Shown in pieces: positions 293 to 20,887 of a stretch of 64,000 nt of DNA. The notes beneath the pieces are model-generated. The model had not been told where the DNA came from and made no database searches. It saw only the letters and a list, made by a program, of their open reading frames with translations. The translations under genes were made by a program, and so were the position numbers. The stretch comes from Escherichia coli (GTDB lineage Bacteria; Pseudomonadota; Gammaproteobacteria; Enterobacterales; Enterobacteriaceae), in the NCBI RefSeq assembly GCF_048403405.1, contig NZ_CP183129.1; one strand, written 5' to 3'. Within the stretch, counting starts at the first letter, position 1; each line of letters begins with the position of its first letter.

Positions 293-303
293 AGGCGATA
301 CCG

Positions 304-792: not shown

Positions 793-1681
793 CCTCCAGT
801 TTCGCTTTGCATTCTATGTAAATGGCTTGTACGTTCTGCTGCAATTTCATTCCAGATGTCAGGCGATATGCTTCTGCAAAATATCGCTTCAAATCATCCA
901 TGTTTTCTGCCTGAGCCATTTCATCGCAAAGAAGTTGTGCTTTATCCATTATTTCCTGCCGGCGTTTCCGTTCATCTTCGCGGATATCTTCCTCTGATTT
1001 GTGCGGCATAACTGGTTCAGTCCATACACCTTCTTCTTCGTTTAGTACGTGAATAGCACTATCAAGACGTGATGCCTTAGGCCAATACTTGCTTGCACGC
1101 TTCACGACCGTCTTTCGCGCCATCTCATTCCAGTGATTTACCCATGGTCCTTTATCGCTGAATGCCGCCTTGCTTGTTTTCCTTACAGCCTCAATTTCAG
1201 CAAGACTCATCTCTTCCGTTAGATAATCACCTGCCGGCGTCTTAACTGTGCAGTAAACGCCAACGATATCACCACGATCACCGAAGGCGTTGTATTTATG
1301 GGTTGGTGCTTTATCAAGCCCGTTTGACTCATAGGTATCGTTAGCATGAACAAGTTTTGCCTGACCCCATGAGATAACACCAGACTCCATTGCAATATGG
1401 AGCAATCCCATATAGCTGATATCAAGGCAAACCATGCCGTCGCGCGGAACCAGATAAGCCAGTTTGCTGGCCGGGTTTAAGGTGATGCCGATCGCCGCAA
1501 CATTGATGATGGCGTTCTGTGCGCTGGTTGGATTTGCCAGTGCTGTTTTAGCCAGGTAATCATTTTTCTGGAAATACTGAATTGCAAACTGGCTTTCCTT
1601 AGCCCATGTCACCGTCTGTTCAGTCAATGCTCCGCAGAATAACTGCTCCTGCTGTTTAACGAATTCAACGATATTGCTCAT
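770..1681 (-). CDS. recT: RecT-family single-strand annealing protein (303 aa)
   Basis: Segment GPWVNHWNEMARKTVVKRASKYWPK resembles the conserved RecT block (Rac RecT GPWVTHWEEMAKKTAIRRLFKYLP, from memory); sits at the position of lambda bet. Confidence 0.75.
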   Translation of the reverse strand: MSNIVEFVKQQEQLFCGALTEQTVTWAKESQFAIQYFQKNDYLAKTALANPTSAQNAIINVAAIGITLNPASKLAYLVPRDGMVCLDISYMGLLHIAMESGVISWGQAKLVHANDTYESNGLDKAPTHKYNAFGDRGDIVGVYCTVKTPAGDYLTEEMSLAEIEAVRKTSKAAFSDKGPWVNHWNEMARKTVVKRASKYWPKASRLDSAIHVLNEEEGVWTEPVMPHKSEEDIREDERKRRQEIMDKAQLLCDEMAQAENMDDLKRYFAEAYRLTSGMKLQQNVQAIYIECKAKLEVASEQTV

Positions 1682-1989
1682 GCAGCTTCTCCATAAATAT
1701 GTCTGCGTTTGAATATTGCGAAGGCATATTCAGCCTTAACTCTTTCGGTTATTGCATCCCAGAACCATTCAGCGGCTTTTTCCTGATAGTTACAGTCATC
1801 ATCTTCCAGCCAGTCGATAGCGTCCTTAGTGTGTTCATCTGGTTTATATGAGCGAAGCATTTCGCTTATTGGGTCGCAACGTTTGCAGAGGCGATCAACT
1901 TCACTGTTGATTCGTTCGTAATCTTCATCAGTAAAACTTGCGATTATTTGCGATATTTCACGCTTATCATTCAGAGTCAGAATCATCAT
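1678..1989 (-). CDS. Hypothetical protein (103 aa) at the position of lambda gam/kil
   Basis: ORF track; 4-nt overlap with recT start; function unknown. Confidence 0.5.
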   Translation of the reverse strand: MMILTLNDKREISQIIASFTDEDYERINSEVDRLCKRCDPISEMLRSYKPDEHTKDAIDWLEDDDCNYQEKAAEWFWDAITERVKAEYAFAIFKRRHIYGEAA

Positions 1990-2070
1990 CTTTCTCCTGT
2001 TCTTTGTGCTGATTGAGCATTTTGTTCATCTGACGAATGAATTCTTCGTCTGACCAGTTATCTGTAAAAC

Positions 2071-2241
2071 TCATGGACGGCCTTGTTGTTTCAAAATATC
2101 CCAAAGCTTTTCGAGCAAACTTTTCATTCTTGGTTGTTTAAAGTCTGCTCCGGTTAAAATGTTTTTTCGTGAATGCTGCACCGATAAAATTGGGTTGAAA
2201 GGGCGAACCGATGCCGCCCCTGCAATAGCGAACTGTTGCAT
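2071..2241 (-). CDS. cIII: cIII-like small protein (56 aa; not in ORF track because under 60 aa)
   Basis: Minus-strand ORF MQQFAIAGAASVRPF...SLLEKLWDILKQQGRP with GGAG SD 8 nt upstream; resembles lambda cIII (MQYAIAG...LIDILNQPGVP, from memory); correct position downstream of N. Confidence 0.5.
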   Translation of the reverse strand: MQQFAIAGAASVRPFNPILSVQHSRKNILTGADFKQPRMKSLLEKLWDILKQQGRP

Positions 2242-2316
2242 AGGATGCTCCTTCTGTTTGATTGCATAACGAAAACGCCTCGAGTGAAGCGTTATTGGTA
2301 TGCGGTAAAGCCGCGC

Positions 2317-2685
2317 TCAGGCGGCTTTGATAGTCATATCATCTGAATCAAATATTCCTGATGTATCGATATCGGTAATTCTTATTCCTTCACTACCATC
2401 CATTGGAGGCCATCCTTCCTGACCATTTCCATCATTCCAGTCGAACTCACACACAACACCATATGCATTTAAGTCGCTTGAAATTGCTATAAGCAGAGCA
2501 TGTTGCGCCAGCATGATTAATACAGCATTTAATACAGAGCCGTGTTTATTGAGTCGGTATTCAGAGTCTGACCAGAAATTATTAATCTGGTGAAGTTTTT
2601 CCTCTGTCATTACGTCATGGTCGATTTCAATTTCTATTGATGCTTTCCAGTCGTAATCAATGATGTATTTTTTGATGTTTGACAT
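2317..2685 (-). CDS. Hypothetical early-left protein (122 aa)
   Basis: ORF track; preceded on the minus strand by a hairpin plus T-run (about 2706..2740) consistent with an N-antiterminated terminator. Confidence 0.5.
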   Translation of the reverse strand: MSNIKKYIIDYDWKASIEIEIDHDVMTEEKLHQINNFWSDSEYRLNKHGSVLNAVLIMLAQHALLIAISSDLNAYGVVCEFDWNDGNGQEGWPPMDGSEGIRITDIDTSGIFDSDDMTIKAA

Positions 2686-2867
2686 CTATTCATATCCTCA
2701 TAGATAAAAAATTGCCCTCACATTGGAGGGCAAAGAAGATTTCCAATAATCAGAACAAGTCGGATCCTGTTTAGTTACGAGCGACATTGCTCCGTGTATT
2801 CACTCGTTGGAATGAATACACAGTGCAGTGTTTATTCTGTTGTTTATGCCAAAAATAAAGGCCACCA

Positions 2868-3068
2868 TCAGGCAGCCTTGTTGTTCAGTTTACCAAGTTC
2901 TCTGGCAATCATTGCCGTCGTTCGTATTGCCCATTTATCGACATATTTCCCATCTTCCATTACAGGAAACATTTCTTCAGGCTTAACCATGCATTCCGAT
3001 TGCAGCTTGCATCCATTGCATCGCTTGAATTGTCCACACCATTGATTTTTATCAATAGTCGTAGTCAT
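2868..3068 (-). CDS. Small Cys-rich (CxxC...CxxC) putative zinc-binding protein (66 aa)
   Basis: ORF track; motif CGQFKRCNGCKLQSEC; typical small early-left phage protein. Confidence 0.45.
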   Translation of the reverse strand: MTTTIDKNQWCGQFKRCNGCKLQSECMVKPEEMFPVMEDGKYVDKWAIRTTAMIARELGKLNNKAA

Positions 3069-3146
3069 ACGGATAGTCCTGGTATTGTTCCATCACATCC
3101 TGCGGATGCTCTTCGAACTCTTCAAATTCTTCTTCCATATATCACC

Positions 3147-3473
3147 TCAAATAAGTGGTTTGCTGCCTAATTTCATTTTCTGGCTACCAACACAAGTCAC
3201 ACCCATTTCACTACGTGGCTTGCTGTACCATGTGCGCTGATTCTTGCGATCAATACGTTGCAGGTTGCTTTCAATCTGTTCGTGGTATTCAGCCAGCACT
3301 GTAAGGTCTATAGGATTCAGTGCGCTTTCTACTCGTGATTTCGGTTTGCGATTCAGCGAGAGAATAGGGCGGTTAACTGGTTTTGCGCTTACCCCAACCA
3401 ACAGGGGATTTGCTGCTTTCCATTTAGCCTGTTTCTCTGCGCGACGTTCGCGGCGGCGTGTTTGTGCATCCAT
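3147..3473 (-). CDS. N: Antitermination protein N (lambda-type, 108 aa)
   Basis: MDAQTRRRERRAEKQA.WKAANPLLVGVSAKPVNRPILSLNRKPKSRVESALNPIDLTVLAEY... matches lambda N almost residue for residue (from memory); nutL lies upstream. Confidence 0.9.
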   Translation of the reverse strand: MDAQTRRRERRAEKQAKWKAANPLLVGVSAKPVNRPILSLNRKPKSRVESALNPIDLTVLAEYHEQIESNLQRIDRKNQRTWYSKPRSEMGVTCVGSQKMKLGSKPLI

Positions 3474-3671
3474 CTGGATTCTCCTGTCAGTTAGCTTTGG
3501 TGATTGGATGGCCGGCGCTGAACCCCGGCTTACTGGTTAGAGCGCCCGCACTACCAGTGACGCTGTCTTGAGGCGCAGATTGGTTACTGCTTGCCATGAG
3601 CGCTGTTTATACATTGGTCGAGCATCAGCCTGCTCATTCATCCAATCCCAAAGCCTTCTGCTTTGAATGCT

Positions 3672-3702
3672 GCCCTTCTTCAGGGCTTAATTTTTAAGAG
3701 CC
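3672..3702 (-). promoter_or_regulatory. nutL (boxA GCTCTTAA plus boxB GCCCTGAAGAAGGGC hairpin)
   Basis: Minus-strand reading gives GCTCTTAAAAATTAAGCCCTGAAGAAGGGC, the lambda nutL arrangement, between pL and N. Confidence 0.75.
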
Positions 3703-3743
3703 TCACCTTCATGGTGGTCAGTGCGTCCTGCTGATGTGCTTAG

Positions 3744-3804
3744 TATCACCGCCAGTGGTATTTATGTCAACACCGCCAGAGATAATTTATCACCGTAGAT
3801 GGTT
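3744..3804 (-). promoter_or_regulatory. oL1-oL2-oL3 operators with leftward promoter pL
   Basis: Three 17-bp cI operator sites TATCACCGCCAGTGGTA, CAACACCGCCAGAGATA, TATCACCGTAGATGGTT with lambda spacing. Confidence 0.8.
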
Positions 3805-3960
3805 ATTTGTATGTTTTTTATATAGATTTATTTTTTGCAGGGTTGTGTGGATTGGGAAGGTGATCGAGAGATCTGAATTGCGATGTTTAGTGAGTTGTAT
3901 CTATTAATTTTGAAATAAATACAATTGGTTATGCGTTTTTTGGGGGGGCGTTAGGCAAAG

Positions 3961-3986
3961 AAAACCCGGCGCTGAGGCCGGGTTAT
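3961..3986 (-). terminator. timm-like rho-independent terminator ending the cI operon
   Basis: Hairpin AACCCGGCctcaGCGCCGGGTT followed on the minus strand by TTTTCTTTG; same sequence as the lambda terminator after rexB (from memory). Confidence 0.7.
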
Positions 3987-3993
3987 GTAGGCA

Positions 3994-4095
3994 TTATGCG
4001 GCTTTTTTGGTGTGTGCTGACGAGCGAGCCAGAATCTCGTTGATGAGAGATCTCAGGGTCATTGCATCTTTGTGCAGAGTGGACATGGTTTTCAT
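3994..4095 (-). CDS. 33-aa basic peptide ORF (MKTMSTLHKDAMTLRSLINEILARSSAHTKKAA), second gene of the cI-downstream cassette
   Basis: ATG with GAGG SD 7 nt upstream; stop 7 nt before the timm hairpin; under the ORF-track size cutoff; not a known lambda gene. Confidence 0.4.
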   Translation of the reverse strand: MKTMSTLHKDAMTLRSLINEILARSSAHTKKAA

Positions 4096-4164
4096 TGCGT
4101 TTCCTCGGTTTATTTTATGGTACTAGCCTAGTTCAAATAGACTATATGAAATCTTGATTTACTA

Positions 4165-4545
4165 TTAAGGCCATTGGGTTGGTGGAAGATCGTGGGTTTT
4201 TATCTGCGTATTTGCTTCCACACATTTATCATAGTCTAATTTCTCTACAGCAAGCAATAGTGATTCAGCATACATCAATCCTTGTTTGATGTTCATAACA
4301 TTTATGCTTGCACTTGCGGCATCCATATCCTTTGCTGTCTCTACCATGTGCTCAAAGCTTTGAGCAATAGAGTCAACACCGTTTTTCATCCTTGTAAACA
4401 CTAATTTTAGCTCATCAAGGCTTGGATTCGTTAGATCATACATCCCATGCATTCCATGGGCTTCGAATAACTCTGACAACGATCTAAGGGCGAAGTTCAC
4501 AGAATCAATAACTTGGTCGTACTTTTTCTTATCAAGATCATTCAT
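4165..4545 (-). CDS. 126-aa acidic protein of unknown function occupying the rexA/rexB position
   Basis: ORF track; starts 66 nt downstream of the cI stop on the same strand, AAGG SD about 11 nt upstream; no TM segment or motif recognised; visibly AT-richer than cI. Confidence 0.6.
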   Translation of the reverse strand: MNDLDKKKYDQVIDSVNFALRSLSELFEAHGMHGMYDLTNPSLDELKLVFTRMKNGVDSIAQSFEHMVETAKDMDAASASINVMNIKQGLMYAESLLLAVEKLDYDKCVEANTQIKTHDLPPTQWP

Positions 4546-4611
4546 TAAAAATATAACCTTTTAACTAATTGATATTGCTGCATTTATATCAATATATGCA
4601 TTTCACATATA

Positions 4612-5328
<717 letters not shown>

Positions 5329-5335
5329 TTAAATC

Positions 5336-5401
5336 TATCACCGCGAGGGATAAATATCTAACACCGTGCGTGTTGACTATTTTACCTCTAGCGGTGATAA
5401 T
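5336..5401. promoter_or_regulatory. OR3-OR2-OR1 operators with divergent promoters pRM and pR
   Basis: TATCACCGCGAGGGATA (5336..5352), TAACACCGTGCGTGTTG (5359..5375), TACCTCTAGCGGTGATA (5383..5399); pR -35 TTGACT and -10 GATAAT overlap OR2/OR1. Confidence 0.85.
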
Positions 5402-5416
5402 AGTTGCATGTACTAA

Positions 5417-5626
<210 letters not shown>

Positions 5627-5633
5627 ATAACCC

Positions 5634-5665
5634 CGCTCTTACACATTCCAGCCCTGAAAAAGGGC
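5634..5665 (+). promoter_or_regulatory. nutR (boxA CGCTCTTAC plus boxB GCCCTGAAAAAGGGC)
   Basis: Canonical lambda nutR immediately after cro. Confidence 0.8.
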
Positions 5666-5741
5666 ATTACCAGAAACAAATCTCTATGGTTTTGCGTTTC
5701 TTTGCGAAGCCAACTCTATCTAATCATTAAGGAAATTATCT

Positions 5742-6023
5742 ATGGGTACTATTGCAACTAAAAGCAAGAAAGCGGCTCGCATCGAGTCAGCCTTGCTGAA
5801 CAAACTGGCACTGATGGGGCAGAAGACATTCGCTCGAGCAATGGGGGTTCCTGAATATCAGGTAAGCAGATGGAAGAATGGTTTCTTCTCGCAGGTAAGC
5901 ATGATGCTGGCTGTTCTGGAATATGGAATCGAAGACGATGAAATGGCTGAATTGACTAAGCGGCTTGCCAATTACCTGACAAAAGAAAAAGCCCCGAAGA
6001 ACGGCGAATTCTTCGAGGCCTGA
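5742..6023 (+). CDS. cII: CII-like transcriptional activator (93 aa)
   Basis: [25 protein letters not shown]...QVSRWK...MLAVLEYG resembles lambda CII ([24 protein letters not shown]...QISRWK...LLAVLEWG) but is clearly divergent. Confidence 0.7.
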
Positions 6024-6057
6024 TGTAGAAAGACTGGATCAATCCACAGGAGTAATT

Positions 6058-6204
6058 ATGACAAAACAACTCAGTCCTTACCAGGACAAAATTCACAAAC
6101 ACATACTACGTGATCGCTTCCTGTCCAGCTTCAAGCAGCCTGGTCGATTCCTGGCTGAGTTGGAAAAAGTGAAGCTGATGCAGAAGGAGAAAGGTCATGA
6201 GTAA
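6058..6204 (+). CDS. Small ORF (48 aa) between cII and O
   Basis: ATG with AGGAG SD 6 nt upstream; stop overlaps the O start; under the ORF-track size cutoff. Confidence 0.35.
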
Positions 6205-7057
6205 TCTTGCAACCGTAACACATTTAAGGCCTTCACAACGGCCTGTGGAGCGTCGTGTGGCAGAAGTTGAAGATGGTTATACCCGTCTTGCAAATGCCCT
6301 GTATGAAGAGCTTATCGGCGCAGATTTAACGAAAAATCAGAGCAAGGTTGCCCACGCCATATGCCGTAAAACATACGGCTACGGTAAAAAGATGGATCGC
6401 ATTTCTGATAGTCAGTTAGCTCAAATTACCAGGCTGCCAAGACAGAAGGTAAACAAGGCCAAGAATGAGCTTATCGCGATGAAGGTTATCCTTCGCGAAG
6501 GCCAGCAAATCGGGCCTAACAAGAACATCGAAGAATGGCAAATCGAAGGGTGTCACTACTCTGGTGATAATGTCACTGCATTGGTGACAAAAAGTGTCAC
6601 CAAAACGGTGACAGCGCTGTCACCAAAACAGGGACACACAAAAGAAACTATTACAAAAGAAAAAAGAAATAATAAAAACACTATGTCCGAAAGTGTTCGG
6701 ACGGAGTGTGAAAAATCATCTGACCGTCACGAAGAAACCGACAAGGCATTCGAGGAAATATTCTGGTGTGCAGGCATGCGGAAAGCCGGGAAGAAAAACG
6801 CGGCTTCGGCATTCAGAACACAGTTCAGGGAATGGCGTAAAACTACCAGGGGTACGGCAAGCGAGTTTGCCACGATGCTGGCAGAAGACATCGCATGCAG
6901 GAATGGTAAGCAGTTCGGATTCGACAGGTTGTTACCATCGAGCTACCTGAACGGTCAACGCTGGAACGACGAGAAGCCAGAAACTATTCAACCACAATCC
7001 AAACCATCATCCGCAATCACCGTATCGAAAACTGGCTACGTGTTTTTCGACAGGTGA
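6197..7057 (+). CDS. O: Replication initiator, lambda O-like (286 aa)
   Basis: N-terminal half matches lambda O (DGYxRLxNxLxE...GADLTKxQxKV...KTYGxxKxMDRIxDSQLxxITxLP); contains the ori iterons internally. Confidence 0.8.
6551..6680. repeat. Origin iterons (repeated TGTCAC/GTGACA inverted-repeat units) plus adjacent A/T-rich tract inside the O gene
   Basis: GTGTCACTACTCTGGTGATAATGTCACTGCATTGGTGACAAAAAGTGTCACCAAAACGGTGACAGCGCTGTCACCAAAACAGGGACAC followed by AAAAGAAAAAAGAAATAATAAAAAC. Confidence 0.5.
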
Positions 7058-7164
7058 ACCATGAAATCAAAAATCAAATCGCTACTGGTCGCTGGTTATA
7101 ACCACGGCTGGTTAAGTATTTCGTTTGTCGATTTCTGGTTTAAAAATCTCAATCTGAGGGAATC

Positions 7165-9045
7165 ATGACACCAAGTGAACTTAGCGACCTGCTTTGGGCG
7201 CAGGTTGACAGGGTGGCTCCGCACCTGTTGCCAAACGGCAAGAAAGAGGGGCATGAGTGGGTTGCCGGTAACGTCAACGGTGACAAGGGAAACAGCCTTA
7301 AGGTCAACCTTAGCGGCAAGAAAAAATGGGCTGATTTCGCTGAGGGAGACGGCGGTGACATGCTTGATTTGTGGATGGCATGTCGTGGAATTAACCTGCA
7401 TCAGGCTATGCAGGAAGCGAAAGCCTTTCTCGGAATCAAGGATGACGATCACCATTTCGATGCCAAACGTGAGAAGAAATTCTCCAGACCTGATCGCAAG
7501 AAAATCGCCCGCTACGTTACCAGAACAGAATCCCATCTTGAGTACCTGCAATCGCGTGGCATATCGCCAGAAATCGTAAAGCGCTACGAGGTTGTCAGCG
7601 GCAAGGTGTGGAATGGAGAGCTGGAACTGGATGCTCTGGTGATTCCGTACAAACGCGATGGTGAGTTGTTGCAGGTCAAGCGAATCAGCACTGAGCGCCC
7701 GGACGGGAAGAAAGTCATTATGGCAGAAGGTGATTGCGAACCTTGTCTGTTCGGATGGCAGGCTCTGGACGCTGGCGTGAGGGCGGTTGTACTTTGCGAA
7801 GGCGAAATTGATTGTATGAGCTATGCGCAATACGGCATCTCGGCGTTATCCGTGCCGTTTGGTGGCGGGAAAGGCGCTAAACAGCAGTGGATTGAGTTTG
7901 AGTATCACAACCTCGACAGGTTTGAGGAAATATTCATCTCGATGGACGTTGATGATGTTGGTCGTGAAGCCGCAAGGGAAATCGCAAGCCGACTCGGTGA
8001 ACATCGTTGCCGTCTTGTTACTCTGCCGTACAAAGACATCAACGAATGCCTGATGAACGGTGTTACCGAGGATGAAATCTGGCAGTACATCGGCACGGCA
8101 TCCTACTTCGACCCTGAAGAACTCTACAGCGCGCGAGAGTTTTACCAGGACACTATCAACGCTTTCTACGGCAAGCAGCAGTATCTGTTTAATCCACCGT
8201 GGGAATCTCTGGTAGATAAATTCCAGTTCCGTGAGGCCGAGTTGACGCTGGTCAATGGTGTGAACGGTCACGGAAAAACGGAGGTTGTCGGGCATATGGC
8301 TCTTGAGGCAATGCGTCAGGGTGTGAAGACGTGCATCGCGTCACTTGAGCTGAAGCCTGGTATTCTCCTTAAGCGCCTTACCCGTCAGGCGACGTGCTGC
8401 AAGATGCCGCCAGTGCTGGAAATTGACTCTGCATTTAAATTTTATGACGAAAGACTTTGGGTGTTTGGCCTGACCGGAACGGCGAAAGCCGACAGGCTGA
8501 TCGAAATATTCGACTACGCTCGCCGCCGATACGGGATCCAGTTATTCATCATCGACAGCCTGATGAAATGTGGCATAGGCGACGATGACTATAACGGGCA
8601 GAAGGCGTTTGTTGACTCGATTTGCGACTTCAAAAACAAAACAAACTCCCACGTCATTCTCGTTACTCACTCGCGAAAAGGAGACAGCGAAGAAAAACCA
8701 ACCGGGAAAATGGACGTAAAAGGCTCTGGAGCGATAACAGACCTGACAGACAACCTTTTCATCATCTGGCGTAACAAGGCTCGCGAGAGAGCGTTACAGA
8801 GAGTTCAGAGTGGTGAAAAGATGTCAGAGAAGGACGAACAGCTACTGGCATCTCCGGCATCTGTTTTGATGCTTGAAAAACAACGTAACGGCGAAGGTTG
8901 GGAAGGTGGTGTCCCGTTGTTCCTTGACGAGCAATCGCACCAGTTCCTGCAACTTGAATCAGGATCGCCATATAGCTACATCGCCAATATGCCGAAATCG
9001 GAATATGACGAGGCGTGGAGACAGGAAAACGTGACGGAGTATTAA
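7165..9045 (+). CDS. Bifunctional DNA primase/helicase (T7 gp4-like; 626 aa) in place of lambda P
   Basis: Central acidic TOPRIM-like block (VVLCEGEIDCMSYAQ...ISMDVDDVGREAA) followed by Walker A GVNGHGKT and a RecA/DnaB-like C-terminal half; follows the O-like gene. Confidence 0.7.
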   Translation: MTPSELSDLLWAQVDRVAPHLLPNGKKEGHEWVAGNVNGDKGNSLKVNLSGKKKWADFAEGDGGDMLDLWMACRGINLHQAMQEAKAFLGIKDDDHHFDAKREKKFSRPDRKKIARYVTRTESHLEYLQSRGISPEIVKRYEVVSGKVWNGELELDALVIPYKRDGELLQVKRISTERPDGKKVIMAEGDCEPCLFGWQALDAGVRAVVLCEGEIDCMSYAQYGISALSVPFGGGKGAKQQWIEFEYHNLDRFEEIFISMDVDDVGREAAREIASRLGEHRCRLVTLPYKDINECLMNGVTEDEIWQYIGTASYFDPEELYSAREFYQDTINAFYGKQQYLFNPPWESLVDKFQFREAELTLVNGVNGHGKTEVVGHMALEAMRQGVKTCIASLELKPGILLKRLTRQATCCKMPPVLEIDSAFKFYDERLWVFGLTGTAKADRLIEIFDYARRRYGIQLFIIDSLMKCGIGDDDYNGQKAFVDSICDFKNKTNSHVILVTHSRKGDSEEKPTGKMDVKGSGAITDLTDNLFIIWRNKARERALQRVQSGEKMSEKDEQLLASPASVLMLEKQRNGEGWEGGVPLFLDEQSHQFLQLESGSPYSYIANMPKSEYDEAWRQENVTEY

Positions 9046-9074
9046 ATGACCATCTACATCACTGAGCTGATAGC

Positions 9075-9106
9075 AGGCCTGCTGGTAATCGCAGGCCTTT
9101 TTATTT
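9075..9106 (+). terminator. Rho-independent terminator after the primase-helicase gene
   Basis: AGGCCTGCtggtaatcGCAGGCCT followed by TTTTTATTT. Confidence 0.55.
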
Positions 9107-9121
9107 GGGGGAGGGTAAATC

Positions 9122-9328
9122 GTGGCTGAGTTTATGCTCGTCGCACTCAAATGCGTTGGCGTTGGATGGATTCTTCTGACGTTTTTTATTGTTCTGCATA
9201 GCTACATTCGCCTTGTGAATGACGGTAAAGATCCATGGTATACGTTGTTTGGCGCTGCATTTGTCTGGGTGATTATCGGTGTTATGCCTGTCGCTGTAGC
9301 AAAAATGGCGTGGCGTTTTGTGAGTTGA
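9122..9328 (+). CDS. Small predicted membrane protein (68 aa, two hydrophobic helices), GTG start
   Basis: GGGAGGG SD 6 nt upstream of GTG; hydrophobic segments WILLTFFIVL and FGAAFVWVIIGVMPVAVA. Confidence 0.45.
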   Translation: MAEFMLVALKCVGVGWILLTFFIVLHSYIRLVNDGKDPWYTLFGAAFVWVIIGVMPVAVAKMAWRFVS

Positions 9329-9345
9329 ACTGAGGGTAATTATCG

Positions 9346-9666
9346 ATGGACGAATCAAGAAAGCAGTTTGAAGAAAGTTGGTTGCGACGTGGAGGCGAAT
9401 CTTCAGACCTTATCCGTTACCCTGAAAATCACCATGAAATTGGCAGTGGTGATATTGGTGGTCAATACGTGATGGACGATGTTCAAGGCCACTGGCAAAC
9501 GTGGCAGGCATCGCGAGCAGCTATTGAAATAACCGCGCCAAAGTTTATCGACAGCAGAGAAGCATTAGCCAAAGGGTTTACTGTTGATTATTCCAATGGC
9601 TTCGGTGATGCAATGGATGCTTATGAGGAAAACATCCGCGCTGCTGGAATCAAAGTGAAGGAGTGA
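9346..9666 (+). CDS. Hypothetical soluble protein (106 aa)
   Basis: ORF track; GAGGG SD; no motif recognised. Confidence 0.45.
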   Translation: MDESRKQFEESWLRRGGESSDLIRYPENHHEIGSGDIGGQYVMDDVQGHWQTWQASRAAIEITAPKFIDSREALAKGFTVDYSNGFGDAMDAYEENIRAAGIKVKE

Positions 9667-9854
9667 GCATGAGTCGACGAAGTAGCTTTTTGGGGTTTGT
9701 AATATTCCTGTCCTGCACTGGTTACATCGTAATCTGGTCAATTTCGAACATTGACCGTGGCTGGGAATATCTCATTGTAATGTTCTTTCCTTTGTTTCTT
9801 GGGTGGTACGCCGCAAGGTTGCTGGAAGAATGGGGTTACAGGCATAAAAAATAA
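9663..9854 (+). CDS. Small predicted membrane protein (63 aa, two hydrophobic helices)
   Basis: AAGGAG SD; hydrophobic segments FLGFVIFLSCTGYIVIW and YLIVMFFPLFLGWYAA; start overlaps the previous stop. Confidence 0.45.
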   Translation: MSMSRRSSFLGFVIFLSCTGYIVIWSISNIDRGWEYLIVMFFPLFLGWYAARLLEEWGYRHKK

Positions 9855-9865
9855 AGGAGTATTCA

Positions 9866-10276
9866 GTGAAGCAAACAATCTTCCTCCGAACTAAGCAACA
9901 ACAGCAAGCCGCAATAAATGCCATCCTCGCAACACCACTCGATAAAGACAAGCCAGTCACCATCCGCATTACTGACTACAAGCGCAACCTTGACCAGAAC
10001 GCAAAATTTCACGTGATGCTGGCGGATATCGCTCGTCAGGTTCAATGGTGCGGCAAATGGTTAAAACCGGAACAATGGAAGGTTTTGTTGATTAGCGGTC
10101 ATGCAGTGGCAACAAACCTGGAAGCTGATGTTTTGCCCGGGCTTGAAGGCGAATACGTCAACATTCGCGAAAGCAGCGCGCAGATGAGTGTGAAGCGCAT
10201 GGCAAGTCTGATCGAGTACACAACAGCCTGGGCTATTGGTCAGGGTGTCAGATTTACCGACAGGAGGTACGAATGA
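9866..10276 (+). CDS. ninB: NinB (Orf-family recombination mediator, 136 aa)
   Basis: Similar to lambda NinB (…RSLDQNRKLWACLGDVSRQVEWHGRWLDAESWK… versus …[33 protein letters not shown]…). Confidence 0.8.
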
Positions 10277-10449
10277 GACGACAGCGACGAAGTTTCACCG
10301 ACATCATCTGCGAAAACTGCAAATACCTTCCAACGAAACGCTCCAGAAATAAACGCAAGCCAATCCCAAAAGAATCTGACGTAAAAACCTTCAACTACAC
10401 GGCTCACCTGTGGGATATCCGGTGGCTAAGACATCGTGCGAGGAAATGA
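10273..10449 (+). CDS. ninE: NinE (58 aa)
   Basis: [58 protein letters not shown] is near-identical to lambda NinE (from memory); under the ORF-track cutoff. Confidence 0.7.
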
Positions 10450-10451
10450 CA

Positions 10452-10811
10452 ATGGATTATTCACAGTTAAGTGATTTTGAAATTAACAAGCGAGTGGCAA
10501 TTTGCTGTGGATTTGCTCCCGAAGATTGCGAAATAGCAAAGTTGGGAACATCAATCGTTGGTGTTGAGTGGGATGACGAAACTGGTTATGCAATAAAAAC
10601 GGTTGATTACTGTAAAAGCCCATCAGACGCAGAGCCGATTATCGTAGAGAACAGAATTGGCATTATTCCAGCGCCAGAAAATGGATTATGGAAGGCAGCG
10701 CATAGAAAAGTTGGCAGTGATAGTACCCCATATCATATGACTCAAGATGAAAACCCACTCCGCGCTGCCATGATTGTCTTTCTCATGATGCAGGACGCCA
10801 ATAATGCTTAG
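10452..10811 (+). CDS. Hypothetical nin-region protein (119 aa from the ATG at 10452; ORF track lists 10410)
   Basis: ATG at 10452 has a GAGG SD at good spacing and avoids overlap with ninE; function unknown. Confidence 0.5.
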   Translation: MDYSQLSDFEINKRVAICCGFAPEDCEIAKLGTSIVGVEWDDETGYAIKTVDYCKSPSDAEPIIVENRIGIIPAPENGLWKAAHRKVGSDSTPYHMTQDENPLRAAMIVFLMMQDANNA

Positions 10812-10980
10812 CCCATCCCAATCCCTCCAATACCAGAAAGAAAGCGTCGAGCGGGCTTTAACGTGCGCTAACTGCGGTCAGAAGCTACATGTGCTGGAAG
10901 TTCACGTGTGTGAGCACTGCTGCGCAGAACTGATGAGCGATCCGAATAGCTCAATGTACGAGGAAGAAGACGATGAGTGA
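10804..10980 (+). CDS. ninF: NinF (58 aa)
   Basis: MLSPSQSLQYQKESVERALTCANCGQKLHVLEVHVCEHCCAELMSDPNSSMYEEEDDE matches lambda NinF (from memory). Confidence 0.65.
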   Translation: MLSPSQSLQYQKESVERALTCANCGQKLHVLEVHVCEHCCAELMSDPNSSMYEEEDDE

Positions 10981-11242
10981 TTTCTCTGAGCTTATTTCCT
11001 TCAAAAAAGACAGAGAAGAAATGCGGACTGAATCTGTCTATTACGTTCAACACCGGAATAAACGCTCGGTGCTTGATCAGGAGCTGATTATTACCGGAGA
11101 CCTGGCATTCAGAACATATAAGGCCAGCATGGAAATGAAGGATTTCCCTAAATGTGGTTCTGAAAGAGAAGCCGCGTTAAAGCTGGCTGAGTGGATGCAG
11201 AGAATGGCTGCTGCAATTGAGAATTACTGGAGTGAACCATAA
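10973..11242 (+). CDS. Hypothetical nin-region protein (89 aa)
   Basis: ORF track; operon-style overlaps with neighbours. Confidence 0.5.
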   Translation: MSDFSELISFKKDREEMRTESVYYVQHRNKRSVLDQELIITGDLAFRTYKASMEMKDFPKCGSEREAALKLAEWMQRMAAAIENYWSEP

Positions 11243-11532
11243 TGGCTAACCTACGCAAAGAAGCGCGCGGCAGAGAATGCCAGGTACGTATTTACGGCAT
11301 ATGCAATGGCAATCCTGAAACTACAGTTCTGGCACATTACCGGATGGCTGGAATTTGCGGAGCGGGAATGAAGCCTGACGACCTGATCGGTGCATGGGCT
11401 TGTAGTGCGTGTCACGATGAAATCGACCGACGCACCCATAATCTCGACAACAAAGACGCCAGACTTTACCACCTCGAAGGCGTGATCAGAACGCAGGCGA
11501 TACTGCTGAGGGAGGGGAAGATTAAGTCATGA
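11242..11532 (+). CDS. Cys/His-rich nin-region protein (96 aa; DUF1364-like)
   Basis: Motifs CQVRIYGICNG and CSACHDEID; common partner of rusA in lambdoid nin regions. Confidence 0.5.
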   Translation: MANLRKEARGRECQVRIYGICNGNPETTVLAHYRMAGICGAGMKPDDLIGAWACSACHDEIDRRTHNLDNKDARLYHLEGVIRTQAILLREGKIKS

Positions 11533-11891
11533 ACGAATATCAGTTTGTGCTTCCATACCCGCCATCGGTGAATACCTACTGGCGAAGACGGGGAAGCCAA
11601 TACTACATCAGCGATAAAGGCCAGAAATACCGAAAAGACGTTCAGCAAATAATCAGCCAACTCAAGTTAGACATTTTCACCAAATCACGACTACGCATCA
11701 AAGTCATCGCAGACGTTCCAGACTCCCGCCGCCGAGACCTCGATAACATCCTGAAAGGTTTACTCGACTCCCTTATCCACGCCGGATTTGCGGAAGACGA
11801 CGAGCAATTCGATGACATTCGCGTAATTCGTGGCGTGAAAGTACCAGGCGGAAGGCTTGGAATAAAAATCACCGAACTGGAGAGCGTATGA
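11529..11891 (+). CDS. rusA: RusA Holliday-junction resolvase (120 aa)
   Basis: PPSVNTYWRRRG...DVPDSRRRDLDNILKGLLDSL matches the RusA catalytic core (...PDRRRRDLDN...). Confidence 0.85.
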   Translation: MNEYQFVLPYPPSVNTYWRRRGSQYYISDKGQKYRKDVQQIISQLKLDIFTKSRLRIKVIADVPDSRRRDLDNILKGLLDSLIHAGFAEDDEQFDDIRVIRGVKVPGGRLGIKITELESV

Positions 11892-12076
11892 ACGCCACAA
11901 TTCAAACGATACCAGAGCTTCTTATCCAGACACGAGGCAATCAGACCGAAGTGGCAAGGATGCTTTCCTGCGCAAGAGGAACAGTGCTCAAGTACAACCG
12001 AGACAGCAAAGGCGAGCGTCACGTAATAGTTAACGGCGTCCTGATGGTCAAACAGGGCAAAAGGGGAAGGCCATGA
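11888..12076 (+). CDS. ninH: NinH-like protein (62 aa)
   Basis: GNQTEVARMLSCARGTVLKY...VNGVLMV resembles lambda NinH (GNQTEVARRLKCSRGTVRKY...VNDVLMV). Confidence 0.55.
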   Translation: MNATIQTIPELLIQTRGNQTEVARMLSCARGTVLKYNRDSKGERHVIVNGVLMVKQGKRGRP

Positions 12077-12696
12077 GACTCGAAAGCGTAGCTAAATTTC
12101 ATTCGCCAAAAAGCCCGATGATGAGCGACTCACCACGGGCTACGGCTTCTGACTCTCTTTCCGGTACTGATGTGATGGCTGCTATGGGGATGGCGCAATC
12201 ACAAGCCGGATTCGGAATGGCTGCATTCTGCGGTAAGCATGAACTCAGCCAGAACGACAAACAAAAGGCTATCAACTATCTGATGCAATTTGCACACAAG
12301 GTATCGGGGAAATACCGTGGCGTTGCAAAACTTGAAGGAAATACTAAGGCAAAGGTACTGCAAGTGCTCGCAACATTCGCTTATGCGGATTATTGCCGTA
12401 GTGCCGCGACGCCGGGCGCAAGATGCAGAGATTGCCACGGTACAGGCCGTGCGGTTGATATTGCCAAAACAGAGCAGTGGGGGAGAGTTGTCGAAAAAGA
12501 GTGCGGAAGATGCAAAGGCGTCGGCTATTCCAGGATGCCAGCAAGCGCCGCATATCGCGCTGTAACGATGCTAATCCCAAACCTTACCCAACCCACCTGG
12601 TCACGCACTGTTAAGCCGCTGTATGACGCTCTGGTGGTGCAATGCCACAAGGAAGAGTCAATCGCAGACAATATTTTGAATGCGGTCACACGTTAG
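12073..12696 (+). CDS. Q: Late antiterminator Q (lambda-type, 207 aa)
   Basis: Sequence MRLESVAKFHSPKSPMMSDSPRATASDSLSG...NILNAVTR equals lambda Q (from memory). Confidence 0.95.
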   Translation: MRLESVAKFHSPKSPMMSDSPRATASDSLSGTDVMAAMGMAQSQAGFGMAAFCGKHELSQNDKQKAINYLMQFAHKVSGKYRGVAKLEGNTKAKVLQVLATFAYADYCRSAATPGARCRDCHGTGRAVDIAKTEQWGRVVEKECGRCKGVGYSRMPASAAYRAVTMLIPNLTQPTWSRTVKPLYDALVVQCHKEESIADNILNAVTR

Positions 12697-12738
12697 CAGC
12701 ATGATTGCCACGGATGGCAACATATTAACGGCATGATA

Positions 12739-12767
12739 TTGACTTTTTGAATAAAGTTGGGTAAATT
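12739..12767 (+). promoter_or_regulatory. Late promoter pR' (-35 TTGACT, 17-bp spacer, -10 TAAATT) with qut region
   Basis: TTGACTTTTTGAATAAAGTTGGGTAAATTTGACCC, near-identical to lambda pR'. Confidence 0.65.
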
Positions 12768-12908
12768 TGACCCAACGATGGGTTAATTCGCTCGTTGTGG
12801 TAGTGAGATAAAAAGAGGCGGCGCTTACTACCGATTCCGCCTAGTTGGTCACTTCGACGTATCGTCTGGAACTCCAACCATCGCAGGCTGAGAGGTCTGC
12901 AAAATGCA

Positions 12909-12968
12909 ATCCCGAAACAGTTAGCAGGTAATAGTTAGAGCCTGCATAACGGTTTCGGGATTTTTTAT
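12909..12968 (+). terminator. tR'-like terminator (end of the short 6S-type late leader transcript)
   Basis: Long stem AATCCCGAAAC...GTTTCGGGA followed by TTTTTTATTT, as in lambda tR'. Confidence 0.6.
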
Positions 12969-12970
12969 TT

Positions 12971-13045
12971 GGGTCAGTCGTATAAAGGTCATTACGGAAG
13001 GCTGTTAACCTTCTTATCGTGGTTCGAGTCCACGCTGTCCCGCCA
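12971..13045 (+). tRNA. tRNA-like gene, anticodon GUU (Asn) by manual fold; one T:T mismatch in the acceptor stem
   Basis: Manual cloverleaf: acceptor GGGTCAG/CTGTCCC, anticodon stem GAAGG/CCTTC with loop CTGTTAA, T-arm CGTGG-TTCGAGT-CCACG, discriminator G, encoded CCA. Confidence 0.45.
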
Positions 13046-13050
13046 AATAT

Positions 13051-13126
13051 GCTGGTTTAGCTCCAATGGTAGAGCAGTCGCCTTGTAAGCGAATGGGTAG
13101 CGGTTCAAGTCCGTTAACCAGCACCA
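13051..13126 (+). tRNA. tRNA-like gene, anticodon UGU (Thr) by manual fold
   Basis: Acceptor GCTGGTT/AACCAGC (perfect), D-arm GCTC-CAATGGTA-GAGC, anticodon loop CTTGTAA, T-loop TTCAAGT, encoded CCA. Confidence 0.55.
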
Positions 13127-13369
13127 TAACTGAGCCGTAGCCACTGGCTATCCTGAATTCATCAGTGATAGTTACGCTGCGGCCTTCTACACATGACCTT
13201 CGTGAAAGCGGTGGCAGGAGGTCGCGCTAATAACCTCCTGCCGTTTTGCCCGTGCATATCGGTCACGAACAAATCTGATTACTAAACACAGTAGCCTGGA
13301 TTTGTTCTATCAGTAATCGACCTTATTCCTAATTAAATAGAGCAAATCCCCTCAATGAAGGGGTAGAGC

Positions 13370-13573
13370 ATGTACCGTATGGACAAAATCAGAGAATGGT
13401 TCAGTTACAGCTTCGGAGGACTGACTGCGATGGGTGGCATTCTCTCCCTGAATGACTGGGCTGTCATCATTGGTATTCTTTGTACTGTCGGCACATTTGG
13501 CATCAACTGGTACTACAAGCGCAAAGAGCGCGAGGACAGATTGAATGGCAATGTCACCGGCACTACGAAATAG
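13370..13573 (+). CDS. Putative holin (67 aa) with dual start (M1-Y-R-M4)
   Basis: Two hydrophobic helices ([25 protein letters not shown]), charged C-terminus; upstream hairpin CCCCTCAATGAAGGGG before the tandem ATGs; overlaps the endolysin start. Confidence 0.6.
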
Positions 13574-14048
13574 CGTAATAGCGGCGATAAGTGGCGGGGC
13601 TATTGCTATAGCATCTGTGTTAATCACTGGACCAAGTGGTAACGATGGTCTGGAAGGTGTTAGCTACATACCATACAAAGATATTGTTGGTGTATGGACT
13701 GTATGTCACGGACACACCGGAAAAGACATCATGCTCGGTAAAACGTATACCAAAGCAGAATGCAAAGCCCTCCTGAATAAAGACCTTGCCACGGTCGCCA
13801 GACAAATTAACCCGTACATCAAAGTCGATATACCGGAAACAATGCGCGGCGCTCTTTACTCATTCGTTTACAACGTGGGTGCTGGCAATTTCAGAACATC
13901 GACGCTTCTTCGCAAAATAAACCAGGGCGATATCAAAGGCGCATGTGATCAGCTACGTCGCTGGACATATGCTGGCGGTAAGCAATGGAAAGGTCTCATG
14001 ACTCGTCGTGAGATTGAGCGTGAAGTCTGTTTGTGGGGGAAACAATGA
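13545..14048 (+). CDS. SAR-type endolysin (phage-21 R-like lysozyme, 167 aa)
   Basis: N-terminal signal-anchor-release helix [17 protein letters not shown] followed by a lysozyme core ([25 protein letters not shown]...), recalled as matching phage 21 R / DLP12 RrrD. Confidence 0.85.
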
Positions 14049-14512
14049 GCAGAGTAACCGCGATTATCTCCGCTCTGGTTATCTGCATCATCGTCTGCCT
14101 GTCATGGGCTGTTAATCATTACCGTGATAACGCCATGACCTACAAAGAGCAGCGCGATAAAAAAGTCAGTGAGCTGAAGCAGGCGACCGCCACCATTACT
14201 GACATGCAGCAACGCCATCGTGCTGCTGATGCACTCGATGCTAAATACACGAAGGAGTTAGCTGATGCGAAAGCTGAAAATGATGCTCTTCGGCGCAAGC
14301 TTGATAATGGTGGCAGGGTGCTCGTCAAAGGAAAATGCCCTGTGCCATCCTCAGCCGAAACCTCCGGCGCCTCCGGCATGGGCAATGATGCCACCGTCGA
14401 ACTCTCTCCAGTTGCTGGACGAAACGTTCTCGGTGTCCGGGACGGAATTATCCGCGACCAAACAGCACTGAGAACGCTTCAGGAATACATCAGGACGCAA
14501 TGCCTTCGATGA
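14045..14512 (+). CDS. Rz: Rz i-spanin (155 aa from MSRV; ORF track lists 14033)
   Basis: [30 protein letters not shown]...[16 protein letters not shown] matches lambda Rz N-terminal two thirds. Confidence 0.85.
14265..14471 (+). CDS. Rz1: Rz1 o-spanin lipoprotein embedded in +1 frame within Rz (68 aa)
   Basis: [21 protein letters not shown]... has a lipobox (VAGC) and a proline-rich tract ([11 protein letters not shown]), like lambda Rz1. Confidence 0.75.
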
Positions 14513-14685
14513 TAGCGATAATTTTACTCATCATCCTTCACATCTGGCTCTGTAGACAGGGTGGTGCTCACTTCTGGAGTAAATCCAGATTAAACATCTC
14601 ATTGCTGATGCTTGATATTGAGCATCTGGCGCGCAGTAAGGGGCTGCGTTGAGATAAGAGCCAGTTCATTACAAATACCAGGATT

Positions 14686-14712
14686 TAGCCTCGCATTCGC
14701 GGGGCTTTTTAT
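14686..14712 (+). terminator. Hairpin plus T-run after the lysis cassette
   Basis: AGCCTCGCattcGCGGGGCT followed by TTTTAT. Confidence 0.4.
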
Positions 14713-14854
14713 ATCTGAATTTCACAGCGCATCTCACGCGCATATTAACGAGAGCCTTTCAGTAAGCGAGCCTGAGAAATGCCGTTATAGGTGGCGACCT
14801 CTCTCGGGCGGCTTTTCTGTGAGACAGGCTCACTTTCTAAAAGGTAAAGACGCT

Positions 14855-15340
14855 ATGAATAACTTTGTTGAAATTACCTCAAGAATTGGTCGCATGTACC
14901 AAGATTTTCTTATAAGTGGAAAGGGGTCTGGCGACATCATAGAGGAAATTGACAAGCTAAGTGCAGAGCTGAGAAGGAATGGGTGTGTTAATTCTATCTT
15001 TTTTGAAACTTTGCTAAAGCAAGGCTTCATGTTTGACATGATTAATTACAACAAAGTCGCACCCAGTGCTTCGCAAAAATCATATGTGTACGTTCTGCAT
15101 GCTGAAGATAGTGGGCTAACAAAAATAGGGTTTAGTCGCAGGGTTAATAAACGAATTTCAGAGATATCTCGCATGAGTGGCGGGAAGCTAAATCTAATTG
15201 CAAAGATTCCGGCCGATAGAGAGCTTGAAACCAAATTGCACCAAAAATATTACAACTATAGGTCGCACGGGGAGTGGTTTAGTCTCAATCGTTGTCATTT
15301 GAAAGAGCTAAAAGAAATGCCTGGTAACGAACTGAAATAA
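14855..15340 (+). CDS. Moron protein (161 aa) with C-terminal GIY-YIG-like (T5orf172-type) domain
   Basis: Start chosen at ATG 14855 (AAAGG SD); the ORF-track extension from 14612 looks non-coding. Motif KSYVYVLHAEDSGLTKIGFSRRVNKRISE...GEWF fits a GIY-YIG/T5orf172 core; gene is AT-richer than its surroundings. Confidence 0.55.
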   Translation: MNNFVEITSRIGRMYQDFLISGKGSGDIIEEIDKLSAELRRNGCVNSIFFETLLKQGFMFDMINYNKVAPSASQKSYVYVLHAEDSGLTKIGFSRRVNKRISEISRMSGGKLNLIAKIPADRELETKLHQKYYNYRSHGEWFSLNRCHLKELKEMPGNELK

Positions 15341-15587
15341 TCCCCGGACTCACCAATTAACGGCAGTACAGCGAAACAACCCAAGCCAGAAAGTGGGGAA
15401 ATAACACTGACAGCCACTGAAAGATGAACCTCCTGCCTTATGGCAAAAAAGATTCTTTGTGGTGGCGGACTGATGGAAAGACATCGGTTATTGCAGAGGC
15501 CATTCAATGAGTGGTCTCGACAATGGCTTATACCCTACACGGGATAACTTAACTGATATCCCTTTTAACGGATAAACGGAGCCAACA

Positions 15588-15830: not shown

Positions 15831-15832
15831 AC

Positions 15833-17685: not shown

Positions 17686-17686
17686 T

Positions 17687-19885: not shown

Positions 19886-19975
19886 TTAACCCATAACGTG
19901 CAATGGCTGTCTTTATGAGGCCTGGCACCCTATTGCCTTCCGATGGGCTGAACATCGAGTAAACAGGGGTAACAA

Positions 19976-20869: not shown

Positions 20870-20887
20870 CCTATCGGAGCATTAAGC

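Follow-up and report, generated by a model that had tools for sequence, protein, structure and literature searches.

Results

Layout of the prophage and its module alleles

The 64,000-nucleotide stretch of Escherichia coli DNA analysed here (hereafter the window; contig NZ_CP183129.1 of assembly GCF_048403405.1) consists of a lambdoid prophage in its first 35 kb, the left end of which lies beyond the window start, followed by E. coli chromosome. Rightward, the prophage carries a RecT/Gp157 module, cIII, ea10, ral, N, the immunity region, cII, O, a primase/helicase gene, the nin genes, and Q, and then two tRNA genes, the lysis genes, and a P22-like virion module with the tailspike gene last. 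Open reading frames and Pfam matches (N36, Phage_CII, Phage_rep_O, NinX, holin, lysozyme, and Rz), together with cis sites placed by alignment to lambda, give the colinear lambdoid order N-nutL-pL/OL-cI-OR/pR-cro-nutR-cII-O-replication-nin-Q-pR'-lysis-virion. At the right end, an IntS-type integrase gene (33714-34907, minus strand) lies beside tRNA-Arg(CCT) (35033-35107), then yfdC and mlaA, and the chromosomal flank is thus ordered intS-argW-yfdC-mlaA. The integrase is 95% identical in amino acids to Int of Sf6 and HK620, and homology to Sf6 stops exactly at the annotated Sf6 attP core (window 35047), within tRNA-Arg(CCT), consistent with the IntS/argW type. Inserted at argW, the prophage is an ordinary mosaic lambdoid whose P22-like podoviral backbone is of the Lederbergvirus type. 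It combines an IntS integrase, a large terminase of the Sf6/HK620 type, a head of the CUS-3/720R6 type, and RecT recombination with a lambda cI/Cro/OL/OR cassette, lambda N with nutL and nutR, and a lambda/P22 Q with qut, each an allele of its module.

Lambda-like blocks and their closest relatives

The window was aligned to lambda (J02459) by local blastn and painted in 50-bp bins by the best of 14 comparators (lambda, mEp043, vB_EcoP-720R6, Sf6, HK620, P22, Sf101, HK97, phiv205-1, CL707, phiKp_30, HK542, the prophage of E. coli PA45B, and SEN22). An initial annotation, made from the sequence alone, had predicted blocks of near-identity to lambda rather than uniform moderate identity, and the alignment bears this out: the match consists of discrete high-identity blocks split by unrelated or ~60%-identical DNA (Table 1), and lambda covers 31% of 3147-13369. 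One block, ea10-ral, sits mostly to the left of 3147, where the stretch named in that annotation begins. At the protein level, identity to lambda is 66/66 for Cro (100%), 206/207 for Q (99.5%), 233/237 for cI (98.3%), and 95/108 for N, compared with 45% for cII and 37.5% for O. Lambda and the window also share nutL, nutR, pR'/qut, the 6S leader, tR', and ea10-ral, but differ in the N-leader interior, the N C terminus, cII, O, replication, most of nin, the holin, the lysin, and all virion genes. Lambda has rexAB and sieB, whereas the prophage in the window has neither, and the lambda sieB region (lambda 34382-35103) is absent from the alignment.

The near-identity proposed for cI-OR-cro-nutR (98.1%) and Q-pR'-tR' (97.7%) was confirmed, and that proposed for N-nutL-pL-timm was confirmed in part. 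N (98.3%) and nutL-timm (91.5%) are lambda-like, the latter at 96-100% up to ~3820 and falling to 64-80% at 3822-3871, but a 144-bp N-leader segment is unrelated and the last 22 codons of N differ. The abrupt stop placed after nutR boxB at about 5666 was found with the last shared base at 5667, per-bin identity dropping from 25/25 to ~16/25 at 5661-5685; beyond it, cII is indeed a distant homologue, at ~60% DNA identity (a 'shoulder', not unrelated sequence). Breaks also lie as expected at the cI stop and timm, where rex is replaced (4610/4611 and 3986/3987), and near the holin start (13352/13353, 17 nucleotides before the ATG at 13370). At tR', the tRNA genes do follow the terminator, but as a substitution, not an insertion: a 159-bp segment (12969-13127) replaces 163 bp of lambda (44782-44944). 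Sf6, 720R6, SEN22, and PA45B have the tRNA pair too.

The description of near-lambda modules embedded in an Sf6/HK620-like prophage held only in part: the mosaic structure is real and the likeness to Sf6/HK620 partial, but CL707, HK542, phiv205-1, and PA45B match the modules better than lambda does. The lambda-like modules are best seen as alleles from a common pool of genes rather than as parts acquired from lambda. The virion module, which had been called Sf6/P22-like, has the P22-like set and order (terminase, portal, scaffold, coat, gp4, gp10, gp26, ejection proteins, and tailspike), with Lederbergvirus records as the best matches over its genes. Its large terminase is 97% identical in amino acids to those of Sf6 and HK620, and its gp10 is 92-99% identical to P22, Sf6, and HK620 (98-99% to Sf6/HK620). 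The head, however, is of the CUS-3/720R6 type and not the Sf6 type: portal, scaffold, and coat (17687-22147) are 97%, 90%, and 90% identical to those of 720R6, compared with 53%, 31%, and 21% for Sf6 and only 21-54% across Sf6, HK620, and P22. With an Sf6/HK620-like terminase beside a 720R6-like portal-scaffold-coat set, a module switch therefore lies at the terminase/portal boundary, and the head genes should be annotated as CUS-3-type.

Over the late region, CUS-3 and phiv205-1 are the best named DNA matches; phiv205-1 covers 61% at 96.0% identity and CUS-3 54% at 95.3%, and 720R6 matches 15338-25202 at 94.7%. Each relative shares some modules with the window and differs in others. The PA45B prophage shares N, the N-leader variant, nutL, cII through primase, and Q-tR'-tRNAs, but it, CUS-3, phiv205-1, and 720R6 have other immunity cassettes between nutL and nutR than the window does; the holin and lysin are lambda-type (class I) in PA45B and 720R6, and the lysis module of the window is missing from phiv205-1 as well. 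Sf6 (NC_005344) and HK620 (NC_002730) share the IntS integrase, large terminase, and gp10. Sf6 additionally shares lambda-type N, nutL, nutR, and tRNA-Asn and tRNA-Thr after tR', but has 434-like operators and a 21-type Q, whereas in HK620 both N and the immunity region are different. The exact prophage was not found in any complete E. coli RefSeq genome, the best of which covers 73% at 96.6%.

N, its leader, and the nut sites

The last 22 codons of N (3147-3216) belong to an allele common to CL707, HK542, mEp043, and Sf101. An island at the N C terminus (3136-3223; the last ~25 codons and the stop region) is common to HK97 and phiv205-1, the N genes of which otherwise differ from that of the window, and lambda differs within this island. 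Between the N ribosome-binding site and nutL lies the hypervariable N-leader interior, which is identical only in the PA45B prophage among the 14 comparators; N, this leader variant, and nutL are continuous with PA45B (2850-3736, 98.5%). A blastn search of 3490-4625 against the phage collection found no phage match for the leader variant or for the rex-slot cargo described below, both being found in E. coli prophages only. Nine phages carry five unrelated leader variants (106-264 nucleotides), all of which fold with the same base stem (GGCUUUGG.. / ..CCAAAGCU), and the pairs that extend it covary between variants. The stems reach into 3480-3502 and 3647-3662, and the leader of the window folds with z = -5.1. 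We take the base stem to resemble the RNase III hairpin of the lambda N leader.

The nutL island is 98-100% identical in all eight comparators with a lambda-type N and absent in five with other N types. Both nutL and nutR are present in all of the former (8/8), and the nut islands occur in none of the latter (0/5; HK620, P22, HK97, phiv205-1, and SEN22). In Sf6 and 720R6, nutL (3647-3736) and nutR (5632-5667) stand as isolated islands with unrelated flanks.

The point of divergence at nutR can be placed narrowly. To the left, the window equals lambda, CL707, and HK542 from cro through GGGCAT (5667), 2 nucleotides past boxB; to the right, it equals Sf101, mEp043, and PA45B from boxA (CGCTCTTA, 5634-5641) onward, the Sf101-type match itself starting at 5632. 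At a single-nucleotide polymorphism in the boxA-boxB spacer (5647), the window has T, the lambda type, and Sf101 has C. With an Sf101-like right parent, the exchange therefore lies within the 20 bases 5648-5667, that is, boxB plus two bases. Homologous pairing becomes efficient at about this length (~20 bp). Most of 3140-6100 is carried by nine complete E. coli genomes; six of the nine match only to 5667, four of them as a single unbroken piece. The cII-to-primase module to the right is 98.5% identical to Sf101 and mEp043, and the nin region is tiled by segments of 720R6, phiv205-1, HK620, and PA45B, with conserved islands at ninE and ninF.

The immunity region and the rex slot

At the sequence level, the window has lambda immunity: cI and Cro have lambda specificity and all six operators match, OR2, OL1, and OL2 being identical to the lambda 17-mers and OR1, OR3, and OL3 each one base off. 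The lysogen is accordingly predicted to be immune to lambda. CL707 and HK542 are closer to this region than lambda is, with CL707 at 100% in most 50-bp bins of 4651-5650 (98.6% over 4612-5705 and 96.8% over 3647-3987); over 3737-3986, CL707 is 96.8% identical and lambda 91.5%. Homology to lambda stops where the timm hairpin has its foot (3986) and resumes at 4611, one base before the cI stop codon. Every comparator sharing cI also shares OL, OR, and cro, and HK97 has all four (3720-3939 and 4616-5640) but neither N nor the nut sites. The wild lambda-immunity phages (CL707, HK542, HK244, HK544, HK106, mEp234, and mEp332; GenBank EF120455-EF120461) share near-identical cI, Cro, OL, OR, and timm, a variable non-rex slot, and mosaic N/cII flanks, but none has the cargo of the window, and the P22-like podoviral backbone of the window differs from that of HK542, which is classified in the Hendrixvirinae.

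In place of rexA/rexB, the slot holds orf33 and orf126. The site between the cI stop and timm is a known one for accessory genes (Owen et al., citing Degnan et al. 2007; PMC7067206), and five lambda-immunity phages (lambda with rexAB, CL707, HK542, HK97, and the window) carry five unrelated cargos there. Neither gene had a match in PADLOC or Pfam, and PHROGs gave only the function-unknown phrog_16322; at the DNA level, the cargo is absent from the phage collection and present in E. coli prophages. An AlphaFold2 model of orf126 from a 14-sequence alignment is a four-helix protein of low confidence (pLDDT, the predicted local distance difference test score, of 61). In E. coli prophages, an identical orf126 occurs downstream of no fewer than three repressor types, and a ~75% identical pair (125 and 33 amino acids) is found in Klebsiella outside any prophage, between sulfatase-family and umuDC-like genes. 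The two-gene cargo is a reasonable candidate for phage exclusion. In prophages with different DNA-binding domains, orf126 is accompanied by timm and by 30 to 410 bp of cI C-terminal coding sequence, and later spread of the cargo can therefore use flanking homology; the same pattern points to crossovers in shared coding sequence. A recurrent intragenic junction at 5022 (~codon 101 of cI) falls at the hinge between the DNA-binding and C-terminal domains, and 720R6 and three E. coli prophage loci combine the lambda-type C-terminal domain with other DNA-binding domains.

Q, the tRNA genes, and lysis

Every comparator sharing this Q shares pR'/qut up to 12771-12796, and seven share Q and qut only that far; P22 gene 23 is 95% identical to the Q gene at the DNA level. 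The whole segment from Q through pR', tR', and the tRNA genes to the pre-holin leader is continuous with phiv205-1 (10755-13352) and the PA45B prophage (10838-13352), and the tR'/tRNA joint is thus inherited, as both carry the same joint. Homology of the leader to lambda ends in the loop of a stem-loop, CCCCT..GGGG (13348-13363). Its 5' arm, CCCCT, comes from the conserved leader and its 3' arm, GGGG, from each holin module, and lambda-type and class II holin modules therefore both keep a stem-loop upstream of the start. The holin and lysozyme region (13353-14044) is unrelated to lambda S and R at the DNA level.

Recurrent junctions and conserved islands

Strict-scoring blastn was used so that alignments end where identity falls, the ends were clustered, and those found with at least three comparators were called recurrent. 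There are 42 such junctions, some at coordinates that recur in up to 11 of the 14 comparators. Most (35/42) are intergenic or within 12 nucleotides of a gene end, compared with 24% expected (binomial p about 1e-15). An independent pattern scan gave 26 terminator-like sites, and 9 of the 14 stronger ones lie within 20 nucleotides of a recurrent junction (2.35 expected by circular shifts, P about 0.001; 4.5 expected with junctions drawn from intergenic or gene-end positions only, P about 0.004). A terminator-like site is near only 12 of the 42 junctions, though, and a thermodynamic scan for stable 36-nucleotide hairpins on either strand found no enrichment at junctions (14/62 vs 10.75, P = 0.15; 19/96 vs 19.3, P = 0.61). 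These two results together indicate an association with regulatory elements at module ends, not with hairpin-forming sequence: the coincidence with hairpins reflects terminators and nut sites being module borders. The idea that junctions fall at regulatory hairpins is correct for four of the five sites originally named (nutR boxB, timm, tR', and the pre-holin leader), but hairpins explain only those 12, and the rule that holds more generally is the border of a gene or module. Likewise, recombination at conserved regulatory linkers is too narrow a description: regulatory islands are present, but islands are also coding (ninE, ninF, the Rz 5' end, the cI C-terminal domain, and the N C terminus).

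Besides the nut sites, the non-coding islands are tR2 (9046-9113, in at least eight comparators), 5976/6033-6067 with an oop-like terminator, and 2706-2863 with the tL2 terminators. The coding islands comprise ninE (10273-10446), ninF (10838-10975), the start of Rz (14045-14161), the N C terminus, and the cI C-terminal domain (4622-5022, common to 720R6). These islands lie between non-homologous alleles in the manner of boundary sequences, and four of them coincide with sequences labelled bsq in the Sf6 GenBank record. When 2025-16000 was tiled greedily with whichever comparator segment reached furthest at ~95% identity or more, three gaps were left without any comparator (3987-4610, 10496-10746, and 14863-15337). 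At every abutting switch, consecutive donors overlap by 8-503 bp, for example by 90 bp at nutL, 34 bp at nutR, 145 bp at ninF, 155 bp in the pre-holin leader, and 117 bp at the start of Rz; tR2 and ninE are likewise among the islands of overlap.

Other features of the window

No comparator matched window 1-2024, and the RecT/Gp157 module there is 98.5% identical to phages Gally, HK140, and mEpX1. A 36-bp hairpin (33657-33692) between the tailspike and integrase stops is 97% identical to lambda 27473-27508 and ~90% identical to mEp043 21824-21875, and is another shared module-end hairpin. An Rfam scan at gathering thresholds returned only three tRNAs and no family for nut sites, 6S, or oop. In the chromosomal part, several E. 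coli genomes match the fadI-fadJ-sixA stretch at 100% identity, and two stretches have low G+C (0.35-0.36), at 37000-39000 (mlaA to the fad genes) and 45000-46000 (after sixA).

Table 1. Coordinates of blocks, genes, cis sites, and junctions in the window (comp., comparators)
Feature	Position	Strand	Details
Lambda ea10-ral block	2272-3153	-	lambda 33490-34371, 98.2%; ea10 (DUF2528) 2317-2685, ral 2868-3068
Lambda N block	3217-3502	-	lambda 35104-35389, 98.3%
Lambda nutL-pL-OL-timm block	3647-3986	-	lambda 35494-35828, 91.5%
Lambda cI-OR-cro-nutR block	4611-5667		lambda 37226-38282, 98.1%
Lambda Q-pR'-6S leader-tR' block	12072-12968	+	lambda 43885-44781, 97.7%
Lambda pre-holin leader block	13128-13352	+	lambda 44945-45168, 96.4%
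Small lambda islands	6624-6669, 9046-9113, 10280-10446, 10838-10975, 14045-14289
RecT/Gp157 recombination module	304-1681	-	RecT-family annealing protein 770-1681; Gp157-family protein 304-792
N antiterminator	3147-3473	-	108 aa (amino acids), Pfam N36
N-leader hairpin interior	3503-3646	-	144 bp replacing lambda 35390-35493, unrelated; hypervariable
nutL island	3647-3736	-	boxB 3672-3686, boxA 3695-3702
OL1-OL3, pL, timm	3737-3986	-	pL hexamers 3770-3742; timm terminator hairpin 3963-3984
Rex-slot cargo	3987-4610	-	orf33 3994-4095, orf126 4165-4545
cI repressor	4612-5325	-	233/237 aa identical to lambda; stop 4612-4614
OR3-OR2-OR1, pRM, pR	5326-5425	.	pR hexamers 5373-5401
cro	5426-5626	+	66/66 aa identical to lambda Cro
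nutR island	5632-5667	+	boxA 5634-5641 (CGCTCTTA), boxB 5651-5665
cII-primase module	5668-9113	+	cII 5742-6023, DUF2740 6058-6204, O 6197-7057, primase/helicase 7165-9045
oop-like terminator	5989-6021	-	junction-associated
tR2 island	9046-9113	+	hairpin 9075-9098, junction-associated
nin region	9114-12071	+	ninB, ninE, ninX, ninF, DUF1364, rusA, ninH
Q	12073-12696	+	206/207 aa identical to lambda
pR'/qut	12739-12767	+	then lambda-type 6S leader and tR', ending in T-tract 12958-12968
tRNA-Asn(GTT)	12971-13045	+
tRNA-Thr(TGT)	13051-13126	+
Class II holin	13370-13573	+	Pfam Phage_holin_2_3
Lysozyme	13545-14048	+	phiKp_30/SEN22 type, like holin
Rz 5'-end island	14045-14161	+	kept in 11/14 comp.; right edge is Sf6 bsq7
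timm hairpin	3963-3984		junction-associated
tL2-region terminators	2712-2733, 2858-2879		junction-associated
Further junction-associated hairpins	2274-2293, 12756-12776, 13348-13363, 14687-14706
Recurrent junctions (comp.)	2025 (8), 2706 (9), 3502 (7), 3647 (7), 3736 (5)
Recurrent junctions (comp.)	5632 (5), 5667 (5), 9046 (7), 9113 (8), 10273 (8)
Recurrent junctions (comp.)	10446 (8), 10838 (8), 10975 (10), 11240 (6), 12781 (7)
Recurrent junctions (comp.)	13352 (9), 14045 (11), 14161 (8), 15350 (10)
Sf6 bsq4 (24156-24268)	2706-2862		BLAST mapping
Sf6 bsq5 (27827-27859)	6033-6065		BLAST mapping
Sf6 bsq6 (30316-30396)	9046-9129		BLAST mapping
Sf6 bsq7 (37312-37359)	about 14114-14161		BLAST mapping

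Discussion

The block structure of this prophage, the recurrence of its junctions across phages, the overlaps between donors, and the co-occurrence of N with the nut sites are direct observations, and we consider it very likely that they arose when conserved cis elements and conserved genes served as sites of homologous exchange, with selection pruning the outcome. The cis sites would stay near-identical because the trans factor that reads them is shared, with nut held constant by N and the Nus factors, terminators by RNA polymerase, and qut by Q; other islands would be conserved small genes or protein domains. The islands may then supply the homology through which host RecA or phage annealing proteins, here RecT, swap neighbouring cassettes, and selection would keep only those recombinants in which co-adapted partners remain together. 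De Paepe et al. (PMC3945230) report that short and diverged homologies are used more effectively by phage annealing proteins than by RecA, and the efficiency of these proteins on such substrates has also been noted elsewhere (PMC2327257). The co-occurrence of N with nut, Q with qut, and cI with its operators fits the co-transfer of interdependent genes (Kupczok et al., PMC9836094), a paper that contains no analysis of nut sites or breakpoints.

Several of our own results weigh against this account. Crossovers in identical islands leave no trace, so we infer, rather than observe, their location inside the islands, and the same is true of which recombinase acted. Seven of the 42 recurrent junctions are inside genes, and, given the kinship among the comparators, the counts per junction are not independent events. 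The five lambda-immunity phages, with their five cargos, share no sequence at the edges of the rex slot (3986/3987 and 4610/4611), where similarity is lost only a few bases from the cI stop and the timm hairpin foot; going by these edges, each cargo probably entered originally by non-homologous joining. At the tR'/tRNA joint, the common sequence (TTTTTTAT) is only 8-11 bp long, less than RecA-type homologous exchange requires. The last two points favour an explanation in which illegitimate recombination was random and followed by selection, joints forming anywhere and those at borders surviving, and the islands being constrained or recently swept sequence; so do the 30 of 42 recurrent junctions that have no terminator-like hairpin nearby, and the absence of a flanking 'shoulder' at about half of high-identity matches (Martinsohn et al., PMC2327257). 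We nevertheless regard this explanation as unlikely, though it is the strongest of the alternatives, because abutting donors always overlap in a shared island, the immunity cassette lies between nutL and nutR islands that also occur in phages with unrelated DNA on both sides, and adjoining cI C-terminal-domain and timm sequence is carried along with the cargo. Illegitimate joining probably made some of the joints originally, but it is not needed for their later spread.

That hairpin structure is itself a hot spot, with stem-loops provoking breaks or template switching regardless of homology, is what the initial annotation says if taken literally, and it might be read from the proximity of strong terminator-like hairpins to junctions and from the junctions inside nutR boxB, the loop of the pre-holin stem-loop, and the tR' T-tract. 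This seems highly improbable given that generic stable hairpins are not enriched at junctions, that strong intragenic hairpins such as those at 12122-12131 and 6692-6698 are not junctions, that the hairpins of the nutL and tR2 islands are interior, with the edges of identity 15-50 nucleotides away, and that most junctions of the nin and lysis regions have no hairpin. Only marginally less improbable is a more speculative proposal that terminators, boxB stems, and the pre-holin stem-loop are exchange hot spots, at which transcription-replication conflicts or RNA-DNA hybrids, for example, could promote exchange, and, as a separate reading, that orf126-orf33 is an undescribed prophage exclusion system. 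If true, regulatory hairpins would actively shape breaks in lambdoid genomes beyond the homology that they provide. Finally, abrupt block ends might also be seen with laboratory lambda, cloning-vector contamination, or a chimeric assembly, and contamination with lambda is common in laboratories. We rejected such an artefact, which retains next to no probability: identity to lambda is 96-98% and not 100%, the wild phages CL707 and HK542 match better than lambda, the same N-cargo-cI-cro block is present in nine complete E. coli genomes, and the PA45B prophage and phiv205-1 have the same Q-tR'-tRNA joint.

That breakpoints are sharp and fall at gene ends, nut sites, and terminators is long familiar from lambdoid mosaicism, and the idea of conserved linkers is the existing modular, or boundary-sequence, hypothesis, which Martinsohn et al. 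(PMC2327257) summarised, with its conserved flanks, beside the illegitimate and homeologous alternatives. The value of this prophage is as a clean worked example, in which near-complete tiling is achieved from only 14 relatives at ~95% identity or more, one crossover interval is narrowed to ~20 bp at nutR boxB, and N, nutL, and nutR co-occur perfectly despite the swappable immunity cassette between them. Homology in islands combined with selection for co-adapted partners is the prevailing view of lambdoid mosaicism, and it is supported here.

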